DNA of 64,000 bases from a virus. Lineage: Duplodnaviria > Caudoviricetes. The position numbers and the translations under genes were made by a program. The DNA lies in IMG/VR virus record IMGVR_UViG_3300031992_000052, positions 31,164 through 95,163 of that record; one strand, written 5' to 3'. The notes under the pieces were generated by a model. That model searched no databases. It was not told the DNA's origin and was given only the letters and a program-made list of their open reading frames with translations. Numbering within the stretch: the first letter of the stretch is position 1; every line of letters starts with the position of its first letter. This document shows positions 15,642 through 42,300 of the stretch, in pieces.

Positions 15642-15795
15642 CTTCGCTACCTGAAGTATAACAAGGACGAGGTAGGAAATCTTAGACAAGGCGACCATTG
15701 CAGGCTTGGCATCAGAGGCGGATGTAAAATAATGTCTGTTCGTATGTTATTATGTCTGAAAAAGTTATTATGTCTAAATAAAAAAATGGTGAATT

Positions 15796-18369
15796 ATGTC
15801 ACAAGCAATTAATATTACTAAAGGTAACGACCACCGTCTGCGCGTAGCCATGACGCGATGGTCAGAGCCGATGGCACTGTCATCGAGCAGCAATGTGCAC
15901 GCCTACGCCGTGAAGAGCGTGACGGGCGTAAGATATGCCCTCGTCGTGCGCTACTCAGCACAGGACGAGGGCGTGATGGAAGTGGACTGGCCTTCGACGC
16001 TGACGGCAGGCTGCTACGGTCTGGAGATTACTGGCACACTGGAGGGTGAGGGCCAGTGGCGCATGGCTGCCGCCAACGCCGTCAAAGTGACACAGGTAAC
16101 GGAGAAAGGCGGCGAGAGCATCACCATGACCGGCGACTCGTTCGATGTGGTGGGCGTAGTGACCGTCTGCGTAGGTTCCACCGGTGTCACCGAAGAGCTG
16201 CGCCAGGCGGTTGCCGACATGATTGAGGAGGAGTATAACGCCTCCGAACGACTGCGCGAAGAAGGCGAGTTTGTCCGTGAGACCCACGAGGACAACCGTA
16301 TACTGGCTGAAGAGGCGCGTGAGGGCAACGAGCTGACGCGAGAGAACAATGAAACCACCCGCCAGACCAATGAGACCGCACGCCAACAGGCAGAGGCGGC
16401 ACGGCAGGGAGCCGAGACGCAACGGCAGGAGGCAGAGTCGCAACGGGCAGGCAACGAGGAGTCACGCCAGCAGGTCTTCGAGACCTCGCAGACCCAACGG
16501 CAATCGTCCTACACCCAGGCCGAAATCGCCCGAGACACGGCCTACCAGACGGCAGAGACAGCACGCAATAACGCCTACAGCACCGCCGAGGGCCAGCGCG
16601 ATACCGCCTTCAGCGAAAAGCAGGCGGAGCGTCAGGCGGCGTACTCAACCGCCGAAGCCGCCCGCGATGCCGCCTTCACTGAAAAGCAGACCCAGCGCCA
16701 GACCTCCTTTGAGACGGCAGAAGCTGGAAGGGCAACAACCTTTACTGCCAACGAGCAACAGCGCGGCACGACATTCGCCACCAACGAGCAGCAGCGGCAG
16801 ACCACCTTCGCCACCAACGAGGGCACAAAGCAAGGTTCTGTAGCAGGCGACGGCAGCCGCTGGGGAATGTATAAGCAGGCAGAGTCACAGCGCGACAGCA
16901 GCTATCAGGCGGCAGAACAGCAGCGCGGCACATCCTACCAGACAGCGGAAGGACAGCGCGACAGCGACTATCAGGCGGCAGAACAGCAGCGCGGCACATC
17001 CTACCAGGCGGCAGAACAGCAGCGTAACACAGAATCGTCGGCAGCAACGTCAGCCGCCAACAATGCCGCCGCAGCCGCCAACAAGGCTGCAGAGGATGCA
17101 GAAGACAAGATAGAAGAGCTGACGGCCAAGGAGGCCACCATTGAAGACCTTGACGAGCTGGCACCCGCCATTACCGTGGCAGACCCAGCCATAGAGGTCA
17201 TCAAGGTGATACTCGCCGACAAGACTGGAGAGCAGAATCTGCAGGGACTGCCCGTCAGGCTGTACCTGTGGGATGACGAGAATGACGCGTGGGTACTTAG
17301 CGAGACAAAGACTGCCGACACCTACGGTATTGCTGTGTTCTCCGTGGAGTATGGGGTGTTGTATAAGATTACGTTTACGCAGGTGACGGGCTGTGAGGTG
17401 ATAGCCGACGTGGAACACCGGGCTGCGCTGATATGGCGTGCCGTGGAAGCTACATACAAACTGCCTGATGCCGGTGAGATACTGACGGTGGTGACACACA
17501 GCCTGAGCGGTTCGGCATACACGCCTCTGGCGGGCGTGACGGTAAGTGTGAGCTACGGATCTGTAGTGAAGAGCAAGCAGACGGACGCACAGGGACAGGC
17601 AGAGTTCACTATCCCCACGGGACAGCAGTATACCGTCAGCACAACGCCTATCGACGGCCTCTATGCCCGATACAACAAATACAGCGAGAAGCATACCGCG
17701 AGCCAGACTCGCAGGACGCAGACCTTCACATATACACCCTGCGAGACCGGCTTCTTCCTGATAGACGGCCAAGGCCGACAGTATAATATAGACGAGTGGC
17801 GTGACGCCGTTACTGCAGGAACGGTGGAAGCTGCCGATGCCAAGCTGGTGAAGATAAGTACAGAAGCCCTTGCCTCGCACGGAGGTGTGTTTGCTATAGA
17901 TATTGATATGATAGCCTACGGCACAGGGCAGCCTGCCAATCAGACATGGGCTGCATCAAACGTAAAGTTCAACTCCATTCCGGAGAACGGCAACAATACA
18001 TCGGCGAACTACTATTACGACGGCTACACAGCATCGCAGCTCATTAAACAGGAAGGTGCCGAGCGTAGCATCGCCACTCCTGCCGTAACAGCCGCCATGG
18101 CTAAGAGTGTGACCGTAGGCGATGAGACATTACCAGGATTCCTTGGCTCGATTGCCCAATGGAGTACGTTGTGGCAGAACCGTGCTGAGATAGATGCACT
18201 GATAGAAGAAGTAAGGCCAGACCACACCAACAGTATCAGCGCGAGAACGACACAGAAATGGACCAGCACACAGAGCAATGCCAACGGCGCCTGGTACTGG
18301 ACTTCGAGTGCCAACTACGGCAACGCCAAGAACAACAGCTACGCTGTCGTTCCCTTCTTCGCGTATTAA
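15796..18369 (+). CDS. DGR target protein 1 (fibre/adhesin-like, C-terminal VR)
   Basis: long ExxR coiled-coil stalk, beta-sandwich repeats, C-terminal WTSTQ..AW..YAVVPFFAY C-type-lectin-like end matching the TR. Confidence 0.9.
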   Translation: MSQAINITKGNDHRLRVAMTRWSEPMALSSSSNVHAYAVKSVTGVRYALVVRYSAQDEGVMEVDWPSTLTAGCYGLEITGTLEGEGQWRMAAANAVKVTQVTEKGGESITMTGDSFDVVGVVTVCVGSTGVTEELRQAVADMIEEEYNASERLREEGEFVRETHEDNRILAEEAREGNELTRENNETTRQTNETARQQAEAARQGAETQRQEAESQRAGNEESRQQVFETSQTQRQSSYTQAEIARDTAYQTAETARNNAYSTAEGQRDTAFSEKQAERQAAYSTAEAARDAAFTEKQTQRQTSFETAEAGRATTFTANEQQRGTTFATNEQQRQTTFATNEGTKQGSVAGDGSRWGMYKQAESQRDSSYQAAEQQRGTSYQTAEGQRDSDYQAAEQQRGTSYQAAEQQRNTESSAATSAANNAAAAANKAAEDAEDKIEELTAKEATIEDLDELAPAITVADPAIEVIKVILADKTGEQNLQGLPVRLYLWDDENDAWVLSETKTADTYGIAVFSVEYGVLYKITFTQVTGCEVIADVEHRAALIWRAVEATYKLPDAGEILTVVTHSLSGSAYTPLAGVTVSVSYGSVVKSKQTDAQGQAEFTIPTGQQYTVSTTPIDGLYARYNKYSEKHTASQTRRTQTFTYTPCETGFFLIDGQGRQYNIDEWRDAVTAGTVEAADAKLVKISTEALASHGGVFAIDIDMIAYGTGQPANQTWAASNVKFNSIPENGNNTSANYYYDGYTASQLIKQEGAERSIATPAVTAAMAKSVTVGDETLPGFLGSIAQWSTLWQNRAEIDALIEEVRPDHTNSISARTTQKWTSTQSNANGAWYWTSSANYGNAKNNSYAVVPFFAY
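16260..17030 (+). repeat. 7- and 11-residue coiled-coil coding repeats
   Basis: near-perfect 33-bp units such as YQAAEQQRGTS at about 16890-17025. Confidence 0.8.
18265..18363 (+). repeat. DGR variable repeat VR1
   Basis: 99 nt; differs from the TR only at TR adenines, plus one extra codon. Confidence 0.95.
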
Positions 18370-18417
18370 TCTCTTTAACTCTTTAACTCTTGAACTCTTT
18401 AGAACAAGCATAGGAAC

Positions 18418-19731
18418 ATGGAAAAAGAAGTATTGGAAGGATATTGGGAAAGGATGAGAGCCCAGTTTGCCAGCAAGGCCCAGATACAAGCCCTCGCCGA
18501 CCTAAAGCAAAATATGTTGACACCTGGAGCTGGCATCAGGATAAATAACGACGTGATTTCCAGCGAACCCATCACGGAGGAGTTGGTGCAGATAGGCATA
18601 ACGTCCAACGTTGCTGGTGTCAGTGTGAGTGGGCTGACCGTCAATGCCTACTACAACGGCAGTACGGAGGTGAGTGGCACAGCAACGACGGATGTTGATG
18701 GCAATGCGCTGCTGAGGGTGCCGACGGGCTATACATACAGGCTGGAGTTCCCCGTGATTGCAGGCTGTGAGGTGATTGCCGACATAGAGAAAACAGCCTC
18801 GCTGGTGTGGCGTGGCGTGAATGTGCAATACACCACGGGACTGGAGCAGGTAGAGGTGTACCTGCGCAAGCAGCTGACAAGCAGCACGGAGGCGGTGGCT
18901 GGCCAGACTGTCAGCGTGACAACGGGTGGCACAACAACCACCTACACCACAGACTCAGACGGCAAGGTGACGTTTGGCGTGACTATCGGTGACAGCTATA
19001 CGGTTTCAGCTCCGAAGCTGCGGGACTGGTATGTGAGTCGGGGAGAGTATACAAGGACTTTCGTTGCAGCCTACGAGTCTCGCGGCGTAGAGTACACCTA
19101 CAAGGCTTATGACAGCGGACTGAAGGTGGTAGACCGTGAGGGTAACGAATATACCACCGAGCAGTTTGCTGCTGCCATAGAGGCTGGCACAAAGGCACCA
19201 AACGATGCCTATCTGGTGAAGGTGGCGACTGACGCGCTGGTGTCTGGGAGCGGCTGTTTTGCCGTAAGGATAGACGATATAGTCAACAGAGGCGGCGGTG
19301 CCACATGGTCAGGCAACAATACGCTGTTCAACGACATCCCGGCCAATGGCAACAATAGCGGCAATGCGCTCTACTATAACGGGCTGCGCGCCAGCGAACT
19401 GATACAAGCAGAGGGCGATACAAGGAACATATCAACGCCTGCCGTCGATGCCTGCTTGTCGCAGAGTATTACCTTCGGCTCCGTCGAGCACAAGGGATTT
19501 TTAGGCGCCATCGGACAGTGGAGTGTCTTGTGGGCTAACAGGACAGCTGTAGATGCCATCATAGCCCTGACAAGACCCAACGCGACAAACAGCCTGAGCA
19601 ACTACACGACGCAGAAATGGACCAGCACACAGTACAGTGCCAACGGCGCCTGGAACTGGACTTCGAGTGCCAACAACGTCAGCAGCCTCAAGGTCGTCAG
19701 CTACGCTGTCGTTCCCTTCTTCGCGTATTAA
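18418..19731 (+). CDS. DGR target protein 2 (paralogue of the C-terminal half of target 1)
   Basis: shares GCEVIAD, IPxNGNN, GFLGxIxQWS and TTQKWTSTQ motifs with target 1; C-terminal VR. Confidence 0.9.
   Translation: MEKEVLEGYWERMRAQFASKAQIQALADLKQNMLTPGAGIRINNDVISSEPITEELVQIGITSNVAGVSVSGLTVNAYYNGSTEVSGTATTDVDGNALLRVPTGYTYRLEFPVIAGCEVIADIEKTASLVWRGVNVQYTTGLEQVEVYLRKQLTSSTEAVAGQTVSVTTGGTTTTYTTDSDGKVTFGVTIGDSYTVSAPKLRDWYVSRGEYTRTFVAAYESRGVEYTYKAYDSGLKVVDREGNEYTTEQFAAAIEAGTKAPNDAYLVKVATDALVSGSGCFAVRIDDIVNRGGGATWSGNNTLFNDIPANGNNSGNALYYNGLRASELIQAEGDTRNISTPAVDACLSQSITFGSVEHKGFLGAIGQWSVLWANRTAVDAIIALTRPNATNSLSNYTTQKWTSTQYSANGAWNWTSSANNVSSLKVVSYAVVPFFAY
19624..19725 (+). repeat. DGR variable repeat VR2
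   Basis: 102 nt; differs from the TR only at adenines, plus two extra codons. Confidence 0.95.
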
Positions 19732-19810
19732 TCTCTTTAACTCTTCAACTCTTTATCTCTTTAAAAAATAAGCATCGGACAAACCCTCTAAAAGTAACGA
19801 TTAAAAGAAT

Positions 19811-20206
19811 ATGCTATCAGAGAAATTGCAGATTTACCTTGACACCTACAAGCTGGTAGAAGTGCTTTACAGGCACATGAGCAATGTGCCTAAAGCCTAC
19901 CGCTATGGTGAATACGGGCGTGCATCGAGCATGTCGTTTGAGGCACTGGACATGATTTACGTGGCCAACAGCAGCCAAGAAGAACGGCCAGCAGCGCTGA
20001 CACGCTATCTGCAACTGATAGGCGGTGTGCGCAGCAGAATGCGCCTGATGAGCGAGATGAAAATCCTGCCGCCGAAGATGAGCGTCAACGTTCAGTTCCT
20101 GCTGGATAAAGTCTCGCGTCAGGCTATCGGCTGGCGCAACGCTTCGCAAAGACCAGAGCCGCTACGCCACGGCAACGCGGGAGAGTCGCATCTTGACAAG
20201 AGATGA
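19811..20206 (+). CDS. avd: DGR accessory variability determinant (four-helix bundle)
   Basis: 131-aa basic helical protein (LQIY..Y.L..PK.YRY..G ... QAIGW) directly upstream of the TR and RT. Confidence 0.85.
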   Translation: MLSEKLQIYLDTYKLVEVLYRHMSNVPKAYRYGEYGRASSMSFEALDMIYVANSSQEERPAALTRYLQLIGGVRSRMRLMSEMKILPPKMSVNVQFLLDKVSRQAIGWRNASQRPEPLRHGNAGESHLDKR

Positions 20207-20287
20207 TACGGGTCGTCGCTTTCACTCCCTGTAAAAAAAGGGGAAGAAGCAAAGGATTTGCAATACGAATATAGTAACGACACACTG

Positions 20288-20383
20288 AGCACACAGAACA
20301 ATGCCAACAACGCCTGGAACTGGACTTCGAGTGCCAACAACAACAACAAGAACAACAGCTACGCTGTCGTTCCCTTCTTCGCG
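20288..20383 (+). ncRNA. DGR template repeat (TR)
   Basis: 96 nt with 32 adenines and 11 AAY codons in the VR frame; lies between avd and the RT core. Confidence 0.95.
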
Positions 20384-21545
20384 CATCGTCAGCAAGGAGC
20401 ACGTTACTATAGAGGATATGTTCGATGCTTACCGCAACTGCCGCCGGCATAAGCGATGCAAGGACAGTGCCATTGAGTTTGAGCTGAACTACGAACTGAA
20501 CTGCTACGCACTCTACCAGCAGCTGAACAGCCAGGCCTACCAGCCCGGTACGTCGGTCACGTTCTGTGTGACGCGGCCAAAGCTGCGTGAGGTGTTCGCC
20601 GCCATGTTCCGCGACCGCGTGGTACACACGCTGCTGATGATGCGCACGGAGGCAGCCGTGGAATGCAGGCTTACCGACTGTGCCTGTGCCTGCCGCAAGG
20701 GAAAGGGCACGCACTACGCCGTCAGAAGACTGAAAGACATGCTAATGATGGCTCCGGATGGATGGACGGTAAAATGCGACATCAGCGGCTTCTTTATGGC
20801 CATCGACAAGCGCGTGCTGCTGCCCCTGTGGGAGGATGTGGTCAGAGAGGCGTGCCCTGACGATACCGACTGGTGGCTGTGGCTGACGAGGACGGTTATC
20901 ATGCACAGGCCGGAGCACGACTGTGAGATGCACGGCAACAGAAACCTGTGGAAGCGGCTGCCAGACAACAAGACACTGTTCCGTACCAACGGGCTGGGTA
21001 TGCCAATAGGCAACCTGCCCAGCCAGATTTCAGCCAACCTGTATCTTGCGGAGTTTGACAGGCAGATGACGGTGTGGCTTGGCGGCGAGATGCGCTACGT
21101 GCGCTATGCCGACGACTTTGTGATGGTACACCCCGACAGGCACGTACTGCTGCGGGTGCTGTCGCAGGCTCGCGAATGGCTGAGAGAGCACCGCAGGCTG
21201 GAGCTGCACCCGAAGAAAGTGACCATACAGCCCGTTAGCCGTGGCGTGAACTTCTTAGGCTCGTTTGTGAGAGGCGGTATTGTCACGCCCGGCAAGAGGC
21301 TGCGTGGCAATGCGCTGAGAGTGGCCGACGAGTGGGCAATGGCAGGCACACACACCGACGAAGAACGCCTGCGTGTATGCCGCCAATGGAACAGCTATGC
21401 AGGTCTGCTGCGACAGTACGACTCCTACAGAATACGGCGCAGTATGTGGCGGCGGATGGGAGATTACGAGGGCTTGAATTGTATTAACATGAATAAGATA
21501 GTATTAACCAATAAAAACAAAAATCATTATGAGACAGTTTGTTAA
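20301..21545 (+). CDS. DGR reverse transcriptase (start uncertain: 20301, 20331 or 20418)
   Basis: FRDRVVH, KCDISGFF, GMPIGNLPSQ, YVRYADDF and GVNFLG motifs. Confidence 0.95.
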   Translation: MPTTPGTGLRVPTTTTRTTATLSFPSSRIVSKEHVTIEDMFDAYRNCRRHKRCKDSAIEFELNYELNCYALYQQLNSQAYQPGTSVTFCVTRPKLREVFAAMFRDRVVHTLLMMRTEAAVECRLTDCACACRKGKGTHYAVRRLKDMLMMAPDGWTVKCDISGFFMAIDKRVLLPLWEDVVREACPDDTDWWLWLTRTVIMHRPEHDCEMHGNRNLWKRLPDNKTLFRTNGLGMPIGNLPSQISANLYLAEFDRQMTVWLGGEMRYVRYADDFVMVHPDRHVLLRVLSQAREWLREHRRLELHPKKVTIQPVSRGVNFLGSFVRGGIVTPGKRLRGNALRVADEWAMAGTHTDEERLRVCRQWNSYAGLLRQYDSYRIRRSMWRRMGDYEGLNCINMNKIVLTNKNKNHYETVC

Positions 21546-22143
21546 AAGTGTCGTACCTGCCGAGGGGTACGAGGAAGTGAAGAAAGTAGGCAGCAAGTAT
21601 GTGGTACATCTGGAGGGTGTTCCGTCGGGAGAAGCCGATGGTACTACGGCCTGCTGGGAAACAATGACCGACGGGGAGCCTGATATGGCTGCTCTGACGG
21701 AAGAGCTACAGGCATGGAAAGCCCACGTCGCAGAACTGGAGCTTACGTCTGCCGTATCGTCCAAGCAGCGCGAGATCCTGTCCTATGACAGTTCGCCATC
21801 CGTAAACAGCTTCGAGATTCGGCGTAACGGCGAGAAGATGATGGACTACTGGATAGGCCGTGACCTGCGTACCTCGCTGGAGGGCGACGTGCTGGCAGCA
21901 TCGGCCATCGGTGACACCTACAAGTTCGATATCCGCGAGCTGGGTATCACGCTGGAGCTGAACTGCACTAAGTTCTTGGCCGCCCTTACACACCTACGCC
22001 AGTATGCCTACCAGGCTTTCAATGTCACCAGCCTTCACCTGGCTAACGTGGGCCAGCTTACTACTGTAGAAGCCGTGCAGGGGTATGACTTCACCACAGG
22101 CTATCCCGCAAAGCTGGTGTTTAATCTTGAGGAGCTGACCTAA
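21529..22143 (+). CDS. DUF4376-like tail-fibre-associated protein
   Basis: YDSSPSVNSF ... YA.QAFNVT..H...V..L.TVEAV..YDFTTGYP.KL pattern. Confidence 0.7.
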   Translation: MRQFVKSVVPAEGYEEVKKVGSKYVVHLEGVPSGEADGTTACWETMTDGEPDMAALTEELQAWKAHVAELELTSAVSSKQREILSYDSSPSVNSFEIRRNGEKMMDYWIGRDLRTSLEGDVLAASAIGDTYKFDIRELGITLELNCTKFLAALTHLRQYAYQAFNVTSLHLANVGQLTTVEAVQGYDFTTGYPAKLVFNLEELT

Positions 22144-22156
22144 AAAAAGGAATGGT

Positions 22157-22258
22157 ATGAAAGATGTAATGTTCGCCGGGATGGGCATGATGTATATGCT
22201 CTCCGTCATCGTCATAGCACAGTCCCGTCTGTTGCGATACCATCGCAACAATCCCTAA
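22157..22258 (+). CDS. 33-aa hydrophobic peptide
   Basis: manual translation MKDVMFAGMGMMYMLSVIVIAQSRLLRYHRNNP; below the ORF-track cut-off. Confidence 0.4.
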   Translation: MKDVMFAGMGMMYMLSVIVIAQSRLLRYHRNNP

Positions 22259-29932: not shown

Positions 29933-31753
<1,821 letters not shown>

Positions 31754-31914
31754 AATCTCTTTCGTCGTTAAATGTTTCTGTGTTGCATTATAATGGCAGG
31801 CGCTCTGATAATCAAGGGCAGGTTTTACGATGTCTGAAGGCTGAGGGCTGAAGGCTGAGGGGCAAGCGTCGGCGGTGGGATACACATCATCCATCATCCA
31901 TCATCCATCAGCCA

Positions 31915-33195
31915 TCACTTTATCTCCGGTGTCCGATGCGTAGCAGGGAAAGCAGTGAACAGCCGCTTGCGGCTCTGATCGCATGCCGCCTTCCTGCGCC
32001 GTGCCTCTGCCGCACAGGCGCACGCCTTCTCGCGCTCCGCCTGCGCTTCCCTCTCGCGCGCGATATTATATATAGGTGTATCTACCGCTGCCTCGCCCAG
32101 CGCATCCAGGTTCTCGGCGATATAGTCGCAAGCCATTGCCATTGCCTGCTGCGCGTCGGTCATGCTGTCGCGCCGTGCCAGCCGTTCTTCTTTTTCGATG
32201 CTGCTGCCGGTGCCCCTTGCCGATGTGCTCACCGTCAAGCTCGTGCGCGTGATAGTCGTCCGTCGGCTCTCGACATAGAAAGCCAGGGCTATGCGGAGCA
32301 ATTCGAGCAGTTCCTCGAAATGCTCAGCGCTCCCCGCCGTCGCCCCCTCGCCGTCCTGTCCCGTTTGCTGCGATAGTATCGCAGCCTCCCCGTCGTTGGC
32401 AAAGGCCACCACGGCCTTCAGCAACTTCGCCCCAATCCTCGGCTTCAGGTAAGTATTCTGACAGAAGCGGATATCCCTCACCAGCGAGACATACGCCATG
32501 CGCTGATTCTTGATGTCAAGGAACTTGTCGAGCACCGTCGCCGTCTGGAACAGCAGGTCTTTGTTCAGGTAGAAGGCGTCGGCATCCTGCCACATCTCGG
32601 TAAACAGTTTCTCTCCCTTTGCGTCGGCTTCGAGGAACAGCAGCAGCGAGTCCGTCGCCCTGCCCGCGCTCATCCAGGCGTCCTTTACCACCCTGTCCTT
32701 CGCCTTCTCGTCAGCGGGGTCGTAGCTCTCGCCGGAAGACACATTCATGCCCCCGCCCTCGTTGAACGATACCGTCAGCAGTCCAGCCTTGTGCGCCAGC
32801 ATCCTGTACCACTCTATCTGCTGACAGATGCGGACGAGACGTATAGCAGCCATATCCTCAGCTGGCACGTCGAACTCCTCCGGCGGCAACATACAATGCG
32901 GCGATATAGGTCCGCAAGAATGTATCCTGTCAAGTTGTTCCGTCACGTCGGCGTATGGCACTCCCGGGTCTTCTTTCGCCTTGCCAGTCGGTTTAACGGT
33001 CGTCGCAGTGATGTCTACATACTGGGCTTTAAGTCGCTCGTATTCGGCACACACGTGCTGAAAGAGCGTCGTGCCCAATAGCGGTTCCAGTGCCACCCGC
33101 TCCTCCTCCTCCAGATAGCCGAACAACACCTGCGGCTTGTCCCACCGCGCCGTAGGCATCAGGCTCTGGATCTCATTCTGTGTCGTAACTAACAT
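31915..33195 (-). CDS. putative head-tail connector-like protein
   Basis: 426 aa with an internal duplication-like pattern (LEPLLG..LF / LKPRIGAKL); context. Confidence 0.55.
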   Translation of the reverse strand: MLVTTQNEIQSLMPTARWDKPQVLFGYLEEEERVALEPLLGTTLFQHVCAEYERLKAQYVDITATTVKPTGKAKEDPGVPYADVTEQLDRIHSCGPISPHCMLPPEEFDVPAEDMAAIRLVRICQQIEWYRMLAHKAGLLTVSFNEGGGMNVSSGESYDPADEKAKDRVVKDAWMSAGRATDSLLLFLEADAKGEKLFTEMWQDADAFYLNKDLLFQTATVLDKFLDIKNQRMAYVSLVRDIRFCQNTYLKPRIGAKLLKAVVAFANDGEAAILSQQTGQDGEGATAGSAEHFEELLELLRIALAFYVESRRTTITRTSLTVSTSARGTGSSIEKEERLARRDSMTDAQQAMAMACDYIAENLDALGEAAVDTPIYNIAREREAQAEREKACACAAEARRRKAACDQSRKRLFTAFPATHRTPEIK

Positions 33196-33394
33196 GGTCG
33201 TATCGTTTTCCCCAATATCGTGCGAAAGGGTTGGGAAATCAAGGGCAGGTTCTATGGTCGCTCCGCTCGAAATTTGATTTAAAATTTATATTTAAAATTA
33301 AGTTTAAAATTATTCCTTCGGCGACAGCCCATTCTAAATAGAATTCTAAATACTAATTCTAAATATAATTTCAGGCGAAGCGCCCAATGAAAGA

Positions 33395-36300
33395 CTACAG
33401 GTACTTCTCGCCGTGCCTTTGCGCCTCCTTCTGCATCTTGTTATACATAGCCGGGATGCCGTCGCTGCCCGTCCATTTGTTGACGGCCTTGATGCCGTTC
33501 ACGAGGGCGCTCTCCAGGAGGTCGCTCTGGCGGTCGATGCTGGCCTGCAGCGAGGCAAGCATCTCGATGCTCATGCCGCCCGTTCCCTCAGCCGTCAGCC
33601 CTCCGCCATCAGCCATCTCCTCGAACTCCCCGATGTTGCCGTCGGCAAAGGCTCTCACGCCAGTGCCGCGACGGCGGCGGGTGCTCAGCCCCGCGATGCT
33701 GCCGCCGTTGTAGAGCGTCTGTATGTCGCGCCAGATGCCGGTCTCGTTCATCTGCAGCAGGCGGGTGGTCTTGGCGTCGATGATCGCCTCTCGCCCTGCC
33801 TCGCCCACGAGGTGGAACTCCGGCCCGTTGGTGATGTGCGTCTTGGCGTCCTTGCCCATGTACTTTGCGCGGTAGGTCTTGCCGTCGGCCCCGTCCACGT
33901 TGTACTGTCTGCCAGGTGTCAGCGAAGCAGGGTCGGTCAGCTCGTTCACGTTACCCTCTGCGTAGGTCAGCATACCCGTGGAGAGGCGGCCAGCACCTAC
34001 CGATGCGCCGGTGGCTTGGGCGATCTCCGACTTCGACTTGGCAATCTTCGACGTAGCCAGTCCCATCAGTCCGCCGATAAGGGCGGTGAATACGCCGACG
34101 GCCACAGGGCCACCGATAGGACCGAGTTCTTTCAGCGTCTTTGATATCCACGAAGGAGCATTGGCAGCAGTCTCACCCGTCGATGCAGCCATTGATGCGG
34201 TCAGCATCGAGATAGCGGCCTGACCAGCTGCCTGCACAATCATCATCTGAACCTTCTGCGACGTGTCGAGGTTGTCGTTGCTCATTGTTTGGTAAGCAAT
34301 GCCGTACATGTTTGCGGCGGCAGTCATGGCGGCAAACGACGATTTGTTGGTCTTTACCATCTGCTGGTCGTTCTGCTGCTCGCTCTTCTTCACCATCTCC
34401 TGAGCCTGCATCTTCGCTTGGGCGGTCTCGGTACTTGCGGCGATCTCCTTCTGCTTCAGTGCGTCCAGTTTCTCACCCGTAGCCTCTATCTGTTCGTCGG
34501 TGATGGATAGCGGCGACGGTACGTACCCTGGCAATTCAGTCAGCATCTCAGTCTTCTCTGTCTCGGCAGCGATAGCCTGCTCCTTATATGTCTGCCACAG
34601 CAGCCCCATGTTCTCCTGACTCTTGGCTACTTCCTCGTCGGTCATCTGCCAAGGGGCTTTCGGAACACCCTCGCCGCTCGGCGTTTCGCCCGTTGGCTGT
34701 ACGGGAGCGATAATCTGTCCCTGCTCGTCCACGGCGAATCCCTCGGCATTGCGCTTGTAGCCGTCGCCTGAACCGCTGCCGCCCGCTGCGCCCATTGAGG
34801 CATAGAGCGCTTCGGTGTTCTTGATGACCGCCTGTGTGTTGGCATCAATGACAGAGTTCTGCAACAGGGCGTTGAGCTGGTCGGTGATGGTTTCGCTCAT
34901 CTTCATGTTGATGTCGTCCCAGAGTTTCTTCCACGCCTCGGCCTGGGCGTTTTGCACTTCTATCTCATGCTGCCTTTCCAGTGCCTGGCTCTCGTCCAGA
35001 TATTCATAGTGCGCCTTTGCGTCGCTGGTGCCTGCATCGTCTATCACCACGTAGGTGCCGGCTCCGGGGCCGCCTTTGCCCGTCAAGTCCAACTTCGCCC
35101 GCTCGTTGTAATACTCCGCGTCACCCGCATGGCTCGCCTCGAATACTCCCTGCAGCGAGCTTGTCAGCAGGTCGGCCCACTCCTTCAGTTCGGTGTACAG
35201 GCGGTTTTGCGATTCCTCCGTGCGGGCAATAATCTCCTCGCGCTGCTTGGCCAGTTCGGTCTCCTCCTTGGCCAGCGAGAGGTTGAGCGACATCTGGGCG
35301 TGCTTGGCATCCAGCCGCAGACGTTCGGCTTCGTTGGTCTTGCCCTCATCCTCGCGCAACTTGGCTTCACGCAGCAGGTCATCGACGCGCTGCTGTCCCG
35401 TCTTGCGTACCAGGTTGTAGTAGTGCTCCTGCATCCGCAGTTGCAGTTGCAGTTGCTTGATGGCCAGTTTGTCGGCCACGCGCTCCGAGGCCACCCCTGC
35501 ACCTATCAGGTTGTTGGCGCGGCTCACGCTGCTCTGCTGCACGCCCAGGGCGCTGATGGCTGCCTCGTAGGTGGCCTTCATGCTCTTGCCGTTGGGCAGT
35601 ATGGCGTCGTTCCATGCGATGTCCACCTGCTTCTTCACCTGCGAGGCTTCCTTCTTGATGGCATCCTGAACCTGGTCGTACACCTCATGCAGCTGTGCTA
35701 TGATGGCCCGCTTCTCCTTGTCGGCGTTCTCGCTATTGATGATGGCGTCTGCCCATGAGCCAAGCCCGTTCTTGCGCATGTCCTCGGCCAGCTGGTCGAA
35801 GGTCAGGCTGTAGGCGTTCTCTGCCTCCTTCAGCAGGAATGTCAGTCGCTTGGTGTTCTCCTCCATGAACTTGCCGTCCTCGGGCACGCCGTCCTTGAAC
35901 AGCAGCCCCATCTTCGTCAGGTTGTTCTGCAGGTTGTCCGTGATGCCGTTGAACGGGCGCTCCTTGGCGATGATGGCCTCTATCTCCTTCAGTTGCTTCA
36001 CAACGATGGCCTGCATGGCGGTCAGGTCTTTCTGCGCCTCGCGGTTGTTATACTTGCGGTCGCGCTCCCAGGCGGCAATCCACTCGGCCTCGATGGCCGT
36101 CCACGACACCTCGTCGAGTTCCTTGACCGATGCCCACCACTGGCGGAACTGCTGAATGAACTGCTTGTCCTCGCTGGTGAACGTCTGGCGCAGTTCCGAC
36201 CGCTTCGTCAGGTGCTCCTGCTCCAGCGCATCCAGCCGGCGGTTATACTCCGCCTCGGTCATCTGCTCGTTGGCGCGGGCTTCCTCTATCAGTTCCTTGC

Positions 36301-39300
36301 GCTCCGAGTAGTAGCGGTCCAGTTCGGCAATGGCTCCCTCGCTCTCCGGGGTCTTGGGTTTCTTCTTCGACCTGCCGCCTTTCTCAGGGTTCTTCCAGTC
36401 GCCTGTCGGTGTCAGGTTACGGGCATCAAGCTCCTCCTGAATCTTCAGTCGCTCCTCGTTGTACCAGGCTATGGCGTCGCGCATGTTCTTGATACCCTTG
36501 CGGGTGGCTTCGTCCATGAACTTCTTATCCATCGACAGGACTTTCTGTACATCGGCACCGCCAGCCAAGGCACGCACACGCTCCAGCATCTCCTTGCGGC
36601 GCTTCACCAGGGCGTTGGCATCCCACTGCTCGTAGGGGTCAACACGCTTGTCGTAGTTGCCGTAGGGGCCACGGTGGTTGAGAGGGTCGTCGTTATCGTT
36701 GTTATTGTTGTTGTAATTGTTATTACCTACGTCTTGATTAACTCGCTGCCTTTGTGTCTCGCGCGTCTGACTTAGGCGGTTCTGATCAATAGACGGCATT
36801 ATCATCCAAGGGAGGTAAGCAGACTGAGCGTCTTTGACAGTTGGTTGCGGCAGGAGTGGAACTTGGATTTCCTTTGGCGTTGGGGCGTTTCTTAATTCTT
36901 CTGCAAGGGTCTGCAGTCCGTTAATTGCTCCAGCCAGGTTTTCGTAGGCTTTGGCGATGTCCTCTTCTGAAGAGTTGACAGCCGTAATAACTTTTACAGC
37001 CCTTTCTCCTTGTTCCTTAAAATTGTTTATCATTTCCTGCGTATCTTCGACACGCCTCTTTTCTGCCGACGATATCTGAGCATTGATGTCTTCTGATGCC
37101 TTTCCTATCTCTTTGGTCATTTCAAGATAGGTTTTCGTGTATTCTGTTCTGAAGTTCTTGATAGTATTACCTACCCAGCCCCATTCACCTGACATACGAG
37201 ATCCAACACCCGTAATGTTAGGTAACAAACCCGTTTCTGTGATTTGTGGAAAAGTTTCCTCCAGATATTTATATACCCATGTAGCAATCAAAACCTCTGC
37301 GTTCTCGGATGCTTCTTTCGGATTGTCCACACCTTTCGACTGAAGATACTGTTCAATCTTGTTAGGGTCGATAGCATCCGTAGGAATTTGGAAGGAATCG
37401 GAGTTGGGATTATAACTGATTTGCCTGAGTGTTTCCTTGATGTCGTTCCTGGCACGGGCAATCTGCTCGGCACTCAGGCCAGCGTCGCGTAAATCATCAA
37501 CAAAACCAATCCACTCTTCCGCCAGATTCTCACTGTAGTGCTCCTTTACCCTCGACTCTACCTGCGTTTTTTCCCTTTGCAACATCTCTGCTTCGAGGGC
37601 AGCAGCTATACGCTCGTGCGCTAACGCCACAAGGTTAGAGTTCTCAGCGTCAGTCAGTAAGAAGCCAAGATACTGACTGTACTTCTGATTGATTTCGTTC
37701 ATCAGATTCTTACGCTTCTCCATATTGCCGTATGCAGCATAGTACGATTTTACGAGTTTGTCAAGTTTGTCTTTTTCCTCGTCAATCTTAGCATTCAATT
37801 CCTCAACCGCTTTCGTGGAAATGTCAACTTCTCCAACCCATGTTGACAAAGCATAGACAGCATAAAGAATAGCCGTCGCCAGAGCCATCCATATATTGGC
37901 CATCATTTCCTTGTTGAGCGCCTTCGTAGCCATCTTGGCCCTTATCGTTGCCACACTTTGTGCTGCTGTTGCTCTTTCCGCCTCGGTCATAGCAGCAGCC
38001 TCTGCTAACTTGGCATTACGGAGGGACTTGCTAAGCATTATATACTCTTGCGTATTTGCTATTAGTCCCTTCAGACCAGTGCCCATAGCCTTCAGTCCGC
38101 TTATAGACTTAAAGAAGATACCCTCGCCAAGACCAATTTTCAAGAGGCCCCAATAAACGATAAATGTTTTCAAAAGAACTGAAACGGCTTTCAGCGCAGG
38201 GCTCACATTGCCTGACAGCAGATTCACTAATCCGCGCAAAAGATCGATGATGACGCCGAGGGCTCTCTGCGCTTCATCTCCAATCCACATTTCTTCAAAC
38301 TCATTTTTCAGCCGCTCCCACTTTGCCGCCGTCGTCTCGTTCATCTTGTCGAACTCCTGCTGTATGGCAATATTCTCCTCATACGCCTCGCTGGCTACGC
38401 CCAATTGTCTTTCCAGCTCCTCAACATTCTGACTCAGGCCTGCGAACACAATACCTGCACGGGCACCCTGCTGGTTCAGTTCCTTCATTATGTCCTGGAA
38501 ACCGGCAGCCTCCATCATTTTCTCCACCTTGTCGGCCACGCCGTCTGCATCGTTTTCAATGCCTTCTGCCGTGATGCCGCTACGCTCGCGGATGGCCTTG
38601 AACAGGTCGATGATGACGGTCATGCCCTGCCCCTCAGCAAAGCGTCGCTTGATGTCCTCTTCGGTTTTCCCAATAATTGCGCCTATCTCGTAAGCGTTAT
38701 TCCTGATAGCCGGAATCATTCGCGACAGGGCAGTAGCAGACATCTCAACTCTCATACCCAGGCTGCTGATCGTCGAACCCAGTGCGGCCACCTGGTCGAT
38801 GGTGATGCCGCTCTGTGCGCCCACGGCTCCCACGCGCTTCACGAGGTCGGTGATTTCGGGGGCGGTCGAAGCACTCGTGGCACGCAGACGGTCGATGGTC
38901 GATGCAATCTTCTCCATGGCGACGGCCGTTGCCGACGAGCCCTCGATGGTGCCCTCCTGCAACTGCTTGCGTATCTTGTCCACCTCGCCCGTGGCGATGG
39001 CCACACGCATCATCTCCGTAGCGGCCTCGCGTCCCATTTCGGGCAGGGCAATCATCAGTTTGTTTGCAGCCTCGGTGAAGCCCTGCACGTCCTCCAGGGT
39101 CTTCAAGCCCAGCTGTCCGGCACTGGCGGAAATTTCCATGAGTGAGGTCAAACTGGTCCTGACGTCCATTTTCTTCAGGTTCTCCGACAGGCGCCCCACC
39201 TCGTCGGCGGTGAAGCCCGTGGTCTTGCGCACCTCACCCATGCGGTCGGAGAGGTCCATGAGGTCGCGGGCGGTGTTGCTCACCTTCTGCCACAGTTCGT

Positions 39301-42300
39301 TGAACCCCATGTACATCACGACGTAGGTCTTCAGGCGGTTGAAGGCTTTCTCCCAGGCGGTGGCACTGGCCTTGGCCTGTCCCTCCATTTCCTTCATCAC
39401 GTTCTTGGCGTTGCGCACCTGTTCGGCGAAGCGTTTGTACTCCGAGCTGTTCTGGCCGAGCGACTGCTGCATCTGGCGCAGCTGTCCGTCGGCACGCTTG
39501 ATGGCGGCGCGCAGCTCGTCGAGGTTCACGGCGTTGGCAGGGGTCTCGATGAGCGTGCGCATCTTCTCCTGCGACATGTTGACGTTATCCTGCTCGAACT
39601 TCAGCGAGCGCAGCTTCTTCGTCAGGTCGTCGAGTTCCTTCTCCTGAGCGTCCACGGCGTTGCCAAGGTCGCGCTCGGCCCTTATCTGCTTGATTAGTTC
39701 CTCGCGGCGGCGCTCCAATGCCTGCGTGGCCTGCTGTATCTCTTGCGCACTGGCGGAGAAACCTTTCTTGCCAGCGCCCTCGGCAATCTTCTGCGCGTCG
39801 GCCAGCTTCATCCACTCGCCCGTGGCCTCCTTCAGTTCCTGGTTCATCTCGCCGATGGTCTTGCGCAGTTCCTCCCACCGCTTCTGCCCGTCGGCGGTAG
39901 AGCGGTCCTGAGCCATCGCCTCGGCCTCCAGCACCTTGATACCCTCCTGCATCTCATCGCGGGTCATGCGGCGTGCTTTCTGCAACTGCTCCTCCACCTC
40001 CACCAGTCCGAGGGCTTCGGCCTTCTGCTGCTTGTAGTAGTCGAGAACGTCTTGGGTGGTTTGCTTCTGCCTGCTTAGCCATTCCACCTGTCCTTTCTGA
40101 CCTGTGCGGGTGGTGGTGCCGTCGTCGAGTATAAGGGTCTCGCCCTCGATGGCATCTCGCAAACCCTCAATCCTGTAGCCCTCGCGCTTATACTCACTCG
40201 TCTGCTTGCGGAACCACGAGCTGTTAGCGTGCTTCTTTTCCAGTTCGGCCAGTTCCTTCTCCATACGTTCGAGTTCGTCAGTAGCCTCCTTGATCTGCTG
40301 CTCGTAGTAATCCACGTTCTCTGCAGTTCGTTTAATATCATCATCAAACACCGACGTGTGCTGACTCAGCTGCTCGTCTATCGACTGCCCCGGCGTGGTG
40401 ACCACCGTGCCTTTCATGTGCTCACTGAACCGCTTCATCACCTCGTCGGCATCGGCGAACCCCGTGCTTATCTTTGCCAGTGCGGTTTCGAACCGTGCCA
40501 GTTCCTGCCGCTCGTCAGCGGTAGCGTCGCCGTCGCGCTCCTTCTCGTGGATCAGACTTACCAGCGTTTCGCGCTGCCGTTGTAGGGCTTCGGTGGCTTT
40601 CTTCGTCTCTGCGTCGGTGGTCACGAATCCCTCGGTGCCTATGCTATCGGCATACTTCATGGCATCTGCCACGGTCATCCATTCCCCGCGCAACTCTGCC
40701 GACTGCTTCTTCAGTTCTTCGAGGCGGAGGGTGAGCTGGCCGATGGCGCGTTCGCCGCGCTCCCACTCTTCCTTGTCGATGGTGGGGTCGAGCTTGCGGT
40801 TCGACTCACGGAGGCGGGCCAGTGCCTGCTCCATCTTGTCGATGCTGCCGGAGCGCAGTCGGTCGGCCTCGCGGGTGGCTTCCTGCTCGGTGGTGATGTT
40901 GCGCTGCATGGCGGCGGTATCGGCGTTGATTTCCTCGGTGAGGTGGCTGTATGCCTGGCCATTCTTCAGCTGTTCGTCGGTGAGTCCGCGCAGTTCGTCT
41001 TCCACTTTCTTGACGGCCTCGCCCTCGTGCTTCTTGGCTTCGGCCTGTGCGTTGCGGGCGTCGGTCTGTTCCTGTTCGGCCCTGGCTAAGCGCTGGTTGG
41101 CGGTCACGGTCTCGTCCACCATGCCGTTCAGCTTGTCTTGCTGCTGGTTCAGCTCGGCGGTCTTCTGCGAGAGTTGTTCCTGCTTCTGTGCCAGCTGCTC
41201 GGAGGACTGAGCGGACTGCTGCTGGGCGGTGGCGGACTGCTGCTGGGCGGTGGCGAGTTTTCCTTCTGTTTCCGTTATGTCAGTAAGGACTTTCCCTTTT
41301 TCCTTAACGGCAGCAAGCAGCGCATTGGTGGCCTCTGTTGACTTCTCAGTCAGTTCGGTCATCCTATCGGAATTGTCGGGCGTTTCCAGAGCAGACTTGT
41401 ATTTCGCTTCAAGTGTTTCGATTTGCTTGATGGCAGACTCGTACTCTTTGATAAGAGCCTTGTAGTAGTCGATAGCGGCCTGAACACCCTGCTTGGACTG
41501 GCCATCCTCGTTATAGAGGGATTTCTTCCAGTCGGTATCTTTTAGGGCTTTCTTGTATTCATCCTGCAGTTTCTTCATCTGCTCCAGGTTGAACTTCAGG
41601 TCGTCAAGGCTCGTGGATTTGCCCTGATCTGTAAAGCTCGCTGCCCTCTCATAAAGGTAGGCTCTTGCGTTTTCAAGATTACGCTGTACGGATGCTTTGA
41701 AGTCTGTTTCTGATACAGAATGGCGGCTCATCATCTGGACATCTGCCGCACCGATGGTATCAGCATATCCGTTATAAGGTATGAAGTGGTCTTGTGGAAG
41801 TTTCTCCAAAGAAGACTTCATTTTGTCGCGGAACTTTGCATAAGCCTGCTCGAACTTTTTCATTTTGTCTCTTGGAGTCGGCAACTTGCTAAGCTCTTCA
41901 AATTCGGCATGGTAACGGTCGGATAATTCACCCTGCGTCTTGATAACTCCATCAAGCTCGTCCCTCTTGGCCTTTAGGCTTTCCAGCTTTGCCTTCAACT
42001 CATCTATCCCGCTCGTGTCAATCTTCGGCTCCGCCTTCACCTCCCCCATCTTCCTGATATCGTCGGTCAGCCCCTGCACTTCGGTGCGCAGTTTCTCCAC
42101 GGTCTGCTTCTGCTCGTCGTAGGCCTGCTGTTGGGTCTTGGCGGCACGGCGGGCGGCGTTCAGCTCCTTGTTGGCATCGTCCACGCGCTGGTTGCGTATG
42201 GCGCGGTCCTCCTTCTCCTGTGCTTTCAGTTCGTCGCGCCGGTCCGTGAGCGTCTGCTGCTGGATGCTATTGTTTTCCATCTTCTGCTCCAGCTCGCGGC

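Follow-up and report, generated by a model that had tools for sequence, protein, structure and literature searches.

Can a single template keep two genes variable at once, and if so, how do repeats copied from one template come to differ in length? These questions are raised by a stretch of 64,000 nt, hereafter the window, from a tailed-phage genome (IMG/VR record IMGVR_UViG_3300031992_000052, positions 31,164 to 95,163). An initial annotation of this stretch had proposed a complete diversity-generating retroelement (DGR) of the kind known from Bordetella phage BPP-1, diversifying two paralogous fibre-like proteins from one template. We are highly confident that the element is indeed a complete DGR with two paralogous targets, both of them active, carried by a long-tailed phage of ruminant gut bacteria. 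It consists of a template repeat (TR), two variable repeats (VR1 and VR2) at the ends of two target genes, the gene avd and a reverse transcriptase (RT) gene, located in the window as follows.

15796-18369 (+): target gene 1, 857 aa; predicted N-terminal beta domain, helical stalk, two beta sandwiches and C-type-lectin-like C-terminus
18265-18363 (+): VR1, 99 nt; nine A-templated substitutions and one NNC codon more than TR
18418-19731 (+): target gene 2, 437 aa; predicted short N-terminal helices, disordered linker, two beta sandwiches and C-type-lectin/DUF1566-like domain
19624-19725 (+): VR2, 102 nt; 14 A-templated substitutions and two NNC codons more than TR
19811-20206 (+): avd (accessory variability determinant), 131 aa; PHROG 3206 'Avd protein of DGR', E 7.9e-11
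20288-20383 (+): TR, 96 nt; ten AAC codons and one AAT codon, including an (AAC)4 tract at 20336-20347
20418-21545 (+): DGR reverse transcriptase, 375 aa; PHROG 1423, E 1.6e-85; Pfam RVT_1, E 1e-13

Template, variable repeats and cassette genes

Exactly three copies of the repeat (TR, VR1 and VR2) are present in the entire 95-kb virus record, and the coordinates assigned to them in the initial annotation were exact. VR1 and VR2 lie in frame at the 3′ ends of the open reading frames (ORFs) 15796-18369 and 18418-19731, respectively. The annotation had further claimed that the VRs depart from TR solely at its adenines, which proved to be the case. Outside the AAC tract, VR1 differs from TR at 4 of 24 adenine sites and VR2 at 8 of 24, with none of the 60 non-adenine sites changed in either repeat. 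Inside the tract, 5/10 A-derived positions are changed in VR1 and 6/12 in VR2, all 11 third-position C's are retained, and every VR tract codon in the window has the form NNC. Pooling both VRs in a codon-by-codon reading gave 23 changed sites among 70 adenines versus 0 among 131 other sites (Fisher p = 1.8e-12), and the confinement of differences to adenines holds in VR1 alone as well as in VR2 alone. The 23 substitutions are biased towards G (14 G, 7 T, 2 C) and include all codon changes listed previously (AAC>AGC/GGC/TAC/GTC and AAT>AGT), in addition to GCC and CTC. What the earlier alignment omitted is that the three repeats can only be aligned with gaps, VR1 and VR2 being 3 and 6 nt longer than TR.

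Homology between the repeats ends at GCG|TAT TAA in both VRs and at GCG|CAT CGT in TR, as had been stated. The final 21 nt of the repeat are free of adenine and the same in TR, VR1 and VR2, and would form the core of the initiation of mutagenic homing (IMH) site of the VRs and of its TR counterpart, IMH*. Beyond this segment, the VRs continue with TAT TAA and a series of octamers, versus CAT CGT CAG after TR. Judged by sequence, the VRs end in an IMH and the TR in a non-identical IMH*, the exact bases of the IMH being putative. An exact-pattern scan for the IMH segment in the viral_contigs and metagenome_contigs sets, which contain no records near the window's genome and provide no measure of rarity, found no match. 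Upstream of the repeats, the TR flank (20274-20287) contains a 9-mer, AACGACACA, that recurs exactly before VR1 (18247-18264) and with two mismatches, as CACGACGCA, before VR2 (19606-19623). The 9-mer lies 3 nt from the repeat at TR and 10 nt from it at the VRs, a spacing difference that looks like the relic of a once longer TR that has lost 7 nt.

All parts of a complete DGR of the BPP-1 kind with one TR and two target genes are present, in the order target 1, target 2, avd, TR and RT, bearing out the initial annotation on this point. The avd product matches Pfam bAvd with an E-value of 1.8e-5 and 25.6 bits, under the curated 40-bit cut-off. The RT passes the cut-off of Pfam RVT_1 (52 bits, cut-off 29.6 bits) and carries both the DGR-type motif IGNLPSQ ([ILV]GxxxSQ class) and the catalytic YADD (YxDD class). 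Its gene likely starts at the ATG at 20418, directly 3′ of TR. A start at 20301 (ORF 20301-21545, overlapping TR) was considered and rejected, as the PHROG 1423 alignment begins at residue 36 of that ORF; it is also disfavoured by relatives, whose proteins share this MFDAY-type N-terminus. The end of TR and the RT start are only 34 nt apart, and any spacer RNA element would therefore have to overlap the RT gene. This TR 3′ flank (20384-20417) contains a motif, GAGCACGTnACnATAGAGGA, that is conserved in relatives (L004, 8901-8931) and takes the form ACGTGACGATA in more distant ones, located directly before or overlapping the RT start. The motif may be the counterpart of the BPP-1 spacer/priming region, a comparison confounded by coding constraint on the RT N-terminus.

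The order target-avd-TR-RT, the adenine-specific differences and the A-free 3′ segment of VR and TR are all shared with the BPP-1 DGR (mtd-avd-TR-brt). Unlike BPP-1, the present DGR has two targets instead of one, VRs and TR of different length, the short interval of 34 nt between TR and RT start and, in place of a GC-rich hairpin after the VRs, four 8-nt direct repeats. Two targets were found in 13% of DGRs surveyed (Wu et al. 2018, PMC5758913), and two-target DGRs of gut phages have been described by Baykov et al. 2023 (PMC10743442). The present locus resembles those systems in that one TR accompanies two VRs in adjacent genes, and in that both targets possess a C-lec (C-type-lectin) domain that bears a hypervariable surface element.

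By analogy with BPP-1, a system already reconstituted in E. coli (PMC12875486), TR would be transcribed, and RT together with Avd would produce cDNA in which the adenines of the template are copied unfaithfully. This cDNA would then replace the last ~100 nt of either of the two adjacent target genes. The targets themselves would present a shared tip module (two beta sandwiches and a C-type-lectin-like domain) on different bases, with their VRs rewritten independently.

Variable repeats of near-identical genomes

Comparison with a sibling genome provided evidence on the activity of each VR. Two proteins encoded on one 55-kb sibling contig, P0029 (856 aa) and P0001 (436 aa), are 100% identical to window targets 1 and 2, respectively, outside the VRs and differ from them in the VRs only.

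Target 1, VR protein sequence: window ...STQSNANGAWYWTSSANYGNAKNN...; sibling (P0029) ...STQYIANNAWYWTSSASNNNKNN...
Target 2, VR protein sequence: window ...YSANGAWNWTSSANNVSSLKVV...; sibling (P0001) ...YSANYAWRWASSADNYTSKTF...

We aligned Logan contigs of four public runs (X3-X6) to positions 15700-22200 of the window, judging the sibling's DNA from the tables of contig differences together with the proteins. Run X3 is from sheep gut, from another sample and another study. Its contigs covering TR (19716-20367 and 20354-20614) display 0 differences from the window, and elsewhere in the ~6.5-kb region outside the VRs there is one single-nucleotide polymorphism (SNP; 20963). A 3-nt gap is present in each of the two X3 contigs that terminate in a VR, accompanied by 9 differences in the case of VR1 and by 12 in that of VR2. 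The differences listed for VR2 yield the P0001 sequence and are located at A-templated positions. Run X4 yielded two distinct VR1 contigs within one sample, and its contigs span both target genes as well as avd-TR-RT. Contigs of X5 and X6 span parts of each, holes in these two runs (e.g. 17002-18303 in X6) being no evidence of absence. The stretch was detected in 13 studies, whose gut samples came from sheep, cattle, goat and other sources, and a search with short C-terminal fragments for further VR alleles returned one distant protein.

A near-identical genome from another sample with the same TR and a different VR1 and VR2 supports the proposal of the initial annotation that the two VRs vary independently. 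That annotation had also held that lack of A-specific polymorphism at one VR would mark an inactive target; both VRs were found to be polymorphic in an A-specific manner between otherwise identical genomes. On this comparative evidence, both VRs appear to be active and to be rewritten independently. The alternative would be that the DGR is inactive and only its anatomy is left, with VR differences between genomes arising from recombination among strains. The evidence for mutagenesis is at contig level and not at read level, which leaves some room for such an account. We nevertheless regard it as very improbable: RT and avd are intact with catalytic motifs present, differences between the otherwise identical genomes are limited, in both VRs, to A-templated positions and leave the third-position C's unchanged, and one sample (X4) holds two VR1 alleles. 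Two further points should be set against activity at both VRs, namely that A-specific variation within a population is visible solely as alternative contigs, and that the X3 sample shares its year and habitat with the window, and the two sheep studies may represent one campaign.

The initial annotation had noted that both VRs carry AAC>GGC at the same codon and suggested selection or shared ancestry. Under independent mutagenesis at the observed rate of 0.33 per A, the probability that one of the seven shared AAY codons acquires the same double mutation in both VRs is ~0.009, and near 0.01 once corrected for the bias towards G, in what is a post hoc test. In the sibling genome, the codon in question reads AAC in VR1 and TAC in VR2, and homologues showed no preference for Gly at this position. 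These results lend no support to selection for Gly at the shared codon, and nothing else links the two VRs.

The length differences between the repeats are located in the AAC tract, which follows GAG TGC C and precedes AAG. In TR the tract comprises four AAC units, whilst VR1 has five codons (AAC TAC GGC AAC GCC) and VR2 six (AAC AAC GTC AGC AGC CTC). Across alleles of target 1, the tract has five codons in the window, four in X3 and the sibling, four in P0031 and five in P0033; across alleles of target 2, it has six in the window and five in X3 and the sibling. TR is constant at four units in the window and in X3, yet the four VRs of these two genomes have five and six codons (window) and four and five (X3). 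Relative to the four-unit TR, the changes in tract length are gains only so far. All tract codons in the window are NNC, and the extra codons were therefore AAC-templated and then mutagenized, as opposed to being random or post-homing insertions. Most simply, the gains would reflect backward slippage of the RT over one or two AAC units during copying of the tract. Under such a mechanism, slippage in three-base steps on (AAC)4 would give the loop between a conserved Ala and a conserved Lys four, five or six diversified codons.

Indels linked to AAC are already known. TR and VR differ in length in 7% of DGRs, mostly adjoining AAC, for which a model of RT template slippage was put forward (Wu et al. 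2018, Fig. 4C-D, PMC5758913), and the same model is cited in PMC12875486. The present DGR resembles those cases in that in-frame indels adjoin TR AAC codons. The DGR lineages in which that survey found in-frame indels to be concentrated are probably not carried by phages (Wu et al. 2018, PMC5758913), whereas the present DGR is. Among 26 other DGR loci that we inspected, TR/VR gaps were found in two (L017, 3 nt; L031, 1 nt). What the present locus adds to the earlier record is a comparison at constant TR, with two near-identical genomes that share the same TR and have four VRs of four, five, five and six codons.

Length differences may also have a source other than slippage of the RT, which counts against this reading, and for the P0031 and P0033 alleles a change in TR length is possible. 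In its general form, this alternative holds that TR itself gained and lost AAC units by replication slippage, each VR recording the length of TR at its last rewriting. The tract is a short trinucleotide repeat, and the genomes encoding P0031 and P0033 are known here from their proteins, their TRs not having been seen. Four units are a short array for frequent replication slippage. Moreover, TR is identical at four units in the window and X3, whose VRs have five, six, four and five codons and whose other 6.5 kb differs by one SNP; several changes in TR length and a return to four units would have had to occur with almost no divergence. This makes the explanation less economical, and we consider it quite unlikely compared with slippage of the RT during copying.

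Octamer arrays downstream of the variable repeats

Each VR is followed, beyond the stop codon of its target gene, by a tandem array of octamers with the consensus CTCTTTAN. TR has no such array.

18371-18402 (+): octamer array 1, four tandem units CTCTTTAA, CTCTTTAA, CTCTTGAA and CTCTTTAG; 1 nt past the target 1 stop
19733-19764 (+): octamer array 2, four tandem units CTCTTTAA, CTCTTCAA, CTCTTTAT and CTCTTTAA; 1 nt past the target 2 stop

Six of the seven double-unit matches in the window fall within these two arrays, where 0.24 would be expected. The arrays are also more similar to each other than the genes that precede them. Nucleotide identity between the paralogues is 60-62% in the coding DNA upstream of the VRs, 85% in the VRs, which are homogenized by TR, and 84% in the 45 nt past the end of TR homology, before falling to 47% in the following 45 nt. 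Folding of the 90-110 nt after each VR revealed no hairpin (z-scores +0.7 and +0.8), and the GC-rich inverted repeat of BPP-1 type is absent from these segments. Such an inverted repeat downstream of the IMH is present in only 34% of DGRs and is not strictly defining.

Relatives with a single target, identified by a family-profile search (RT 43-52% identical), also have this array downstream of the VR, in some cases with a GC hairpin behind it; in L006, L009 and L014, the hairpin follows a shorter array. We also scanned IMG/VR for the octamer pattern, for which all figures refer to the 116 loci among the matches listed. The array directly follows a DGR VR in 27/42 A/A-type hits, 3/16 mixed hits and 0/58 T/T low-complexity hits, and is thereby found after the VR in at least 30 other viral DGR loci (30/58 hits that were not of low complexity). 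The VR C-termini that bear an array belong to at least seven unrelated groups, with RTs down to 30% identical to that of the window (30-52%). Arrays in these loci comprise two to five units, and TR never carries one. Two pairs of loci (L057/L117 and L066/L079) have the same flanks around the array and five versus four octamers after the VR, indicating that array copy number changes on short time scales.

The A-free 21-nt 3′ end is the same in TR and VRs, and hence the mark that distinguishes a recipient must sit downstream of it. The four CTCTTTAN octamers are the best candidate for such a mark of the VR as recipient. Our search of the literature found no description of direct repeats downstream of VRs; its coverage was incomplete and it is no proof of novelty. 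Part of the evidence pulls the other way, in that the arrays may serve another role, such as expression of the next gene, or be a relic of duplication, and in that relatives devoid of a DGR keep a shortened array, which fits either a relic or another function.

These observations bear on an alternative in which the arrays are a 3′-untranslated or intergenic signal, for example a terminator substitute or a translation signal for the next gene, that travels with the target family and is not a DGR cis element. The intergenic position of the arrays, the shortened array after the target gene in DGR-less relatives and the GC-rich hairpin that follows the array in several relatives all agree with such a role. 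A signal of this kind would be less expected to follow VRs of at least seven unrelated C-terminal sequences with RTs of such divergence, to be absent from TR in every case and from the rest of the 64-kb window, and to retain 84% identity between paralogues versus ~60% in coding DNA. On balance, we find the alternative rather unlikely. In its broadest form, the proposal is that in a large clade of phage DGRs, the octamer array after the VR marks the recipient of the cDNA, replacing or complementing the hairpin of BPP-1, and that slippage on the AAC tract is a built-in second mode of diversification that varies loop length (four to six codons), independently in two fibres of different reach. This combined proposal is tentative, and we would attach somewhat more doubt than confidence to it.

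Target proteins and phage context

The initial annotation described the targets as paralogous receptor-binding proteins, one with a long and one with a short stalk. Their paralogy was confirmed, with 41% identity over 392 aa (target 1 residues 467-857; E 4e-83), and the prediction of C-terminal folds that it had called for was carried out. The AlphaFold model of target 1 (m651d9b28a854; mean pLDDT, the predicted local distance difference test score, 68) features a beta domain at ~14-98 and predicted long helices at 133-342 and 355-442, the helices being encoded by 33-nt (11-residue) repeats (window 16490-17051). If extended, this predicted stalk of ~300 residues would reach an estimated ~45 nm (0.15 nm per residue). 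In the model of target 2 (mf75c2158be2c; mean pLDDT 85, from a 24-sequence alignment), N-terminal helices at 1-31 are followed by a disordered linker, and the base comprises ~50 residues only. The long predicted helical stalk of target 1 and the near absence of one in target 2 agree with the earlier distinction, and 'fibre-like, long and short' is a fair description of these predictions.

Structural matches were obtained for each part of the target 2 tip. Its sandwiches (52-139 and 142-232) match transthyretin, CnaB and carboxypeptidase-regulatory domains (Z 9-11), and its C-terminal domain (~235-437) matches the C-terminal domain of Legionella Lcl (8q4e; Z 9.3, 126/131 residues) and Bdellovibrio Bd2740-C (8oks; Z 8.4). 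Taken as a whole, the model matches BACOVA_04982, the type V pilus tip protein of Bacteroides ovatus (4eps; Z 13.5, 338 residues), which together with the Lcl domain constitutes the best structural match. There is no detectable sequence similarity to either of these two, and both are bacterial surface proteins and not phage proteins. When PDB sequences were searched with a profile of the target family, no match was found either. In each target, the VR encodes the last 33-35 residues of the C-type-lectin-like domain, and these models place it in a predicted C-type-lectin-fold domain of a protein-coding gene, as is typical for DGRs. The arrangement differs from that of the two-target phages of PMC10743442, in which the two targets differ in topology and include 'tentaclins' with an N-terminal C-lec domain; here the targets are paralogues with a common C-terminal module, mounted on a long base in one and on a short base in the other.

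Orthologues of target 1 point to a modular build. Indels in the repeat region, one of them of exactly 11 residues, set P0031 and P0033 (827 and 749 aa) apart from the 857-aa protein, and by this sequence evidence the length of the predicted stalk varies among closely related phages. One orthologue has a different N-terminal domain, and P0032 has the same anchor and stalk as target 1 and an unrelated tip. The N-terminal domain of target 1 resembles the N-termini of phage proteins with collagen, LRR or DUF285 modules, and BppU_N was a weak lead at 0.87.

A location of the targets on the virion, a role in receptor binding and the combinatorial tropism envisaged by the initial annotation would be consistent with these models. 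Set against them are the lack of any tail-fibre assignment for either target in Pfam and PHROGs, and the fact that the case for the targets as virion proteins rests on fold resemblance and the weak N-terminal lead. The proteins might instead be decoration proteins or adhesins elsewhere on the virion, for example on the capsid or neck in the manner of Hoc-like 'tentaclins', and bind a ligand other than the host receptor. PMC10743442 discusses such targets of DGRs, and a cyanophage neck-fibre domain (8keg, Z 8.3) is among the matches of the sandwich domains. Besides the missing tail-fibre matches, the orientation of the cassette, on the opposite strand to the protease/tape-measure module at 29933-43117, speaks for this possibility. 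The resemblance of the target 1 N-terminus to those of phage proteins with varied distal modules, the BppU_N lead and the junction in P0032 of an orthologous anchor and stalk with a different tip, a modular pattern typical of fibres, speak against it. We deem decoration proteins the less likely of the possibilities and tentatively favour receptor-binding fibres.

The phage itself was classified from genes elsewhere in the window. A 3240-aa ORF (33395-43117, −) matches tape measure families (PHROG 28, E 8.5e-16) and a head maturation protease is also encoded, indicating a long-tailed phage. This tape-measure-like protein is of unusual length, from which a very long tail would be expected if tail length follows the usual rule. 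A crAss-like phage, considered on account of the very large ORFs, was rejected given the tape measure matches of the 3240-aa protein and the presence of the protease. The window RT is <40% identical to any RT of GenBank phages, and neither tblastn of target 2 nor megablast of the cassette against GenBank phages gave a match; single-protein searches for related loci in IMG/VR found none. The target family is metagenome-only and common in ruminant gut samples.

Downstream of the cassette lies one further gene that is conserved in phage relatives.

21529-22143 (+): 204-aa gene, neighbour of the cassette, outside the DGR

In relatives without avd-TR-RT, the 204-aa gene adjoins the target gene directly and is therefore not part of the DGR. 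The same comparison shows that avd-TR-RT behaves as an insertion/deletion cassette in this phage group. Eight related contigs (L005, L008, L010-L013, L015 and L016) have no avd-TR-RT within their available flanks and carry the 204-aa gene directly after the target. The 3′ ends of their target genes differ among themselves in the manner of VRs and are followed by 1-1.5 octamers and a small hairpin that have been kept, which would fit either a DGR acting from elsewhere in the genome or relics of one. At the other end of the cassette, three copies of a (G)TTATTATGTCT-type motif (window 15731-15822) are located immediately before the start codon of target 1 and overlap it. In each of the four runs, numerous unrelated contigs stack up at 15737-15778 (summed depth 162 in X3), indicating that the motif is widespread among the phages or hosts sampled, where it may act as a promoter or leader element.

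As a DGR, the element offers little that is new: cassettes with two targets, targets of C-lec type and indels linked to AAC have each been recorded before. It is valuable as a clean natural experiment, in which two almost identical genomes have one TR in common and, between them, four distinct VRs of three lengths. Compared with a lone TR/VR alignment, this makes a better case both for two live targets and for a loop whose length is varied during retrohoming. The locus is also a compact test case for the long-standing question of how VR and TR are discriminated, with two VRs that are each followed by four octamers and no hairpin, and a TR that is identical to them up to the last base of the shared repeat. 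Finally, work on the host range of rumen phages could make use of a target family in which one and the same tip is set on either a long base or a short one.

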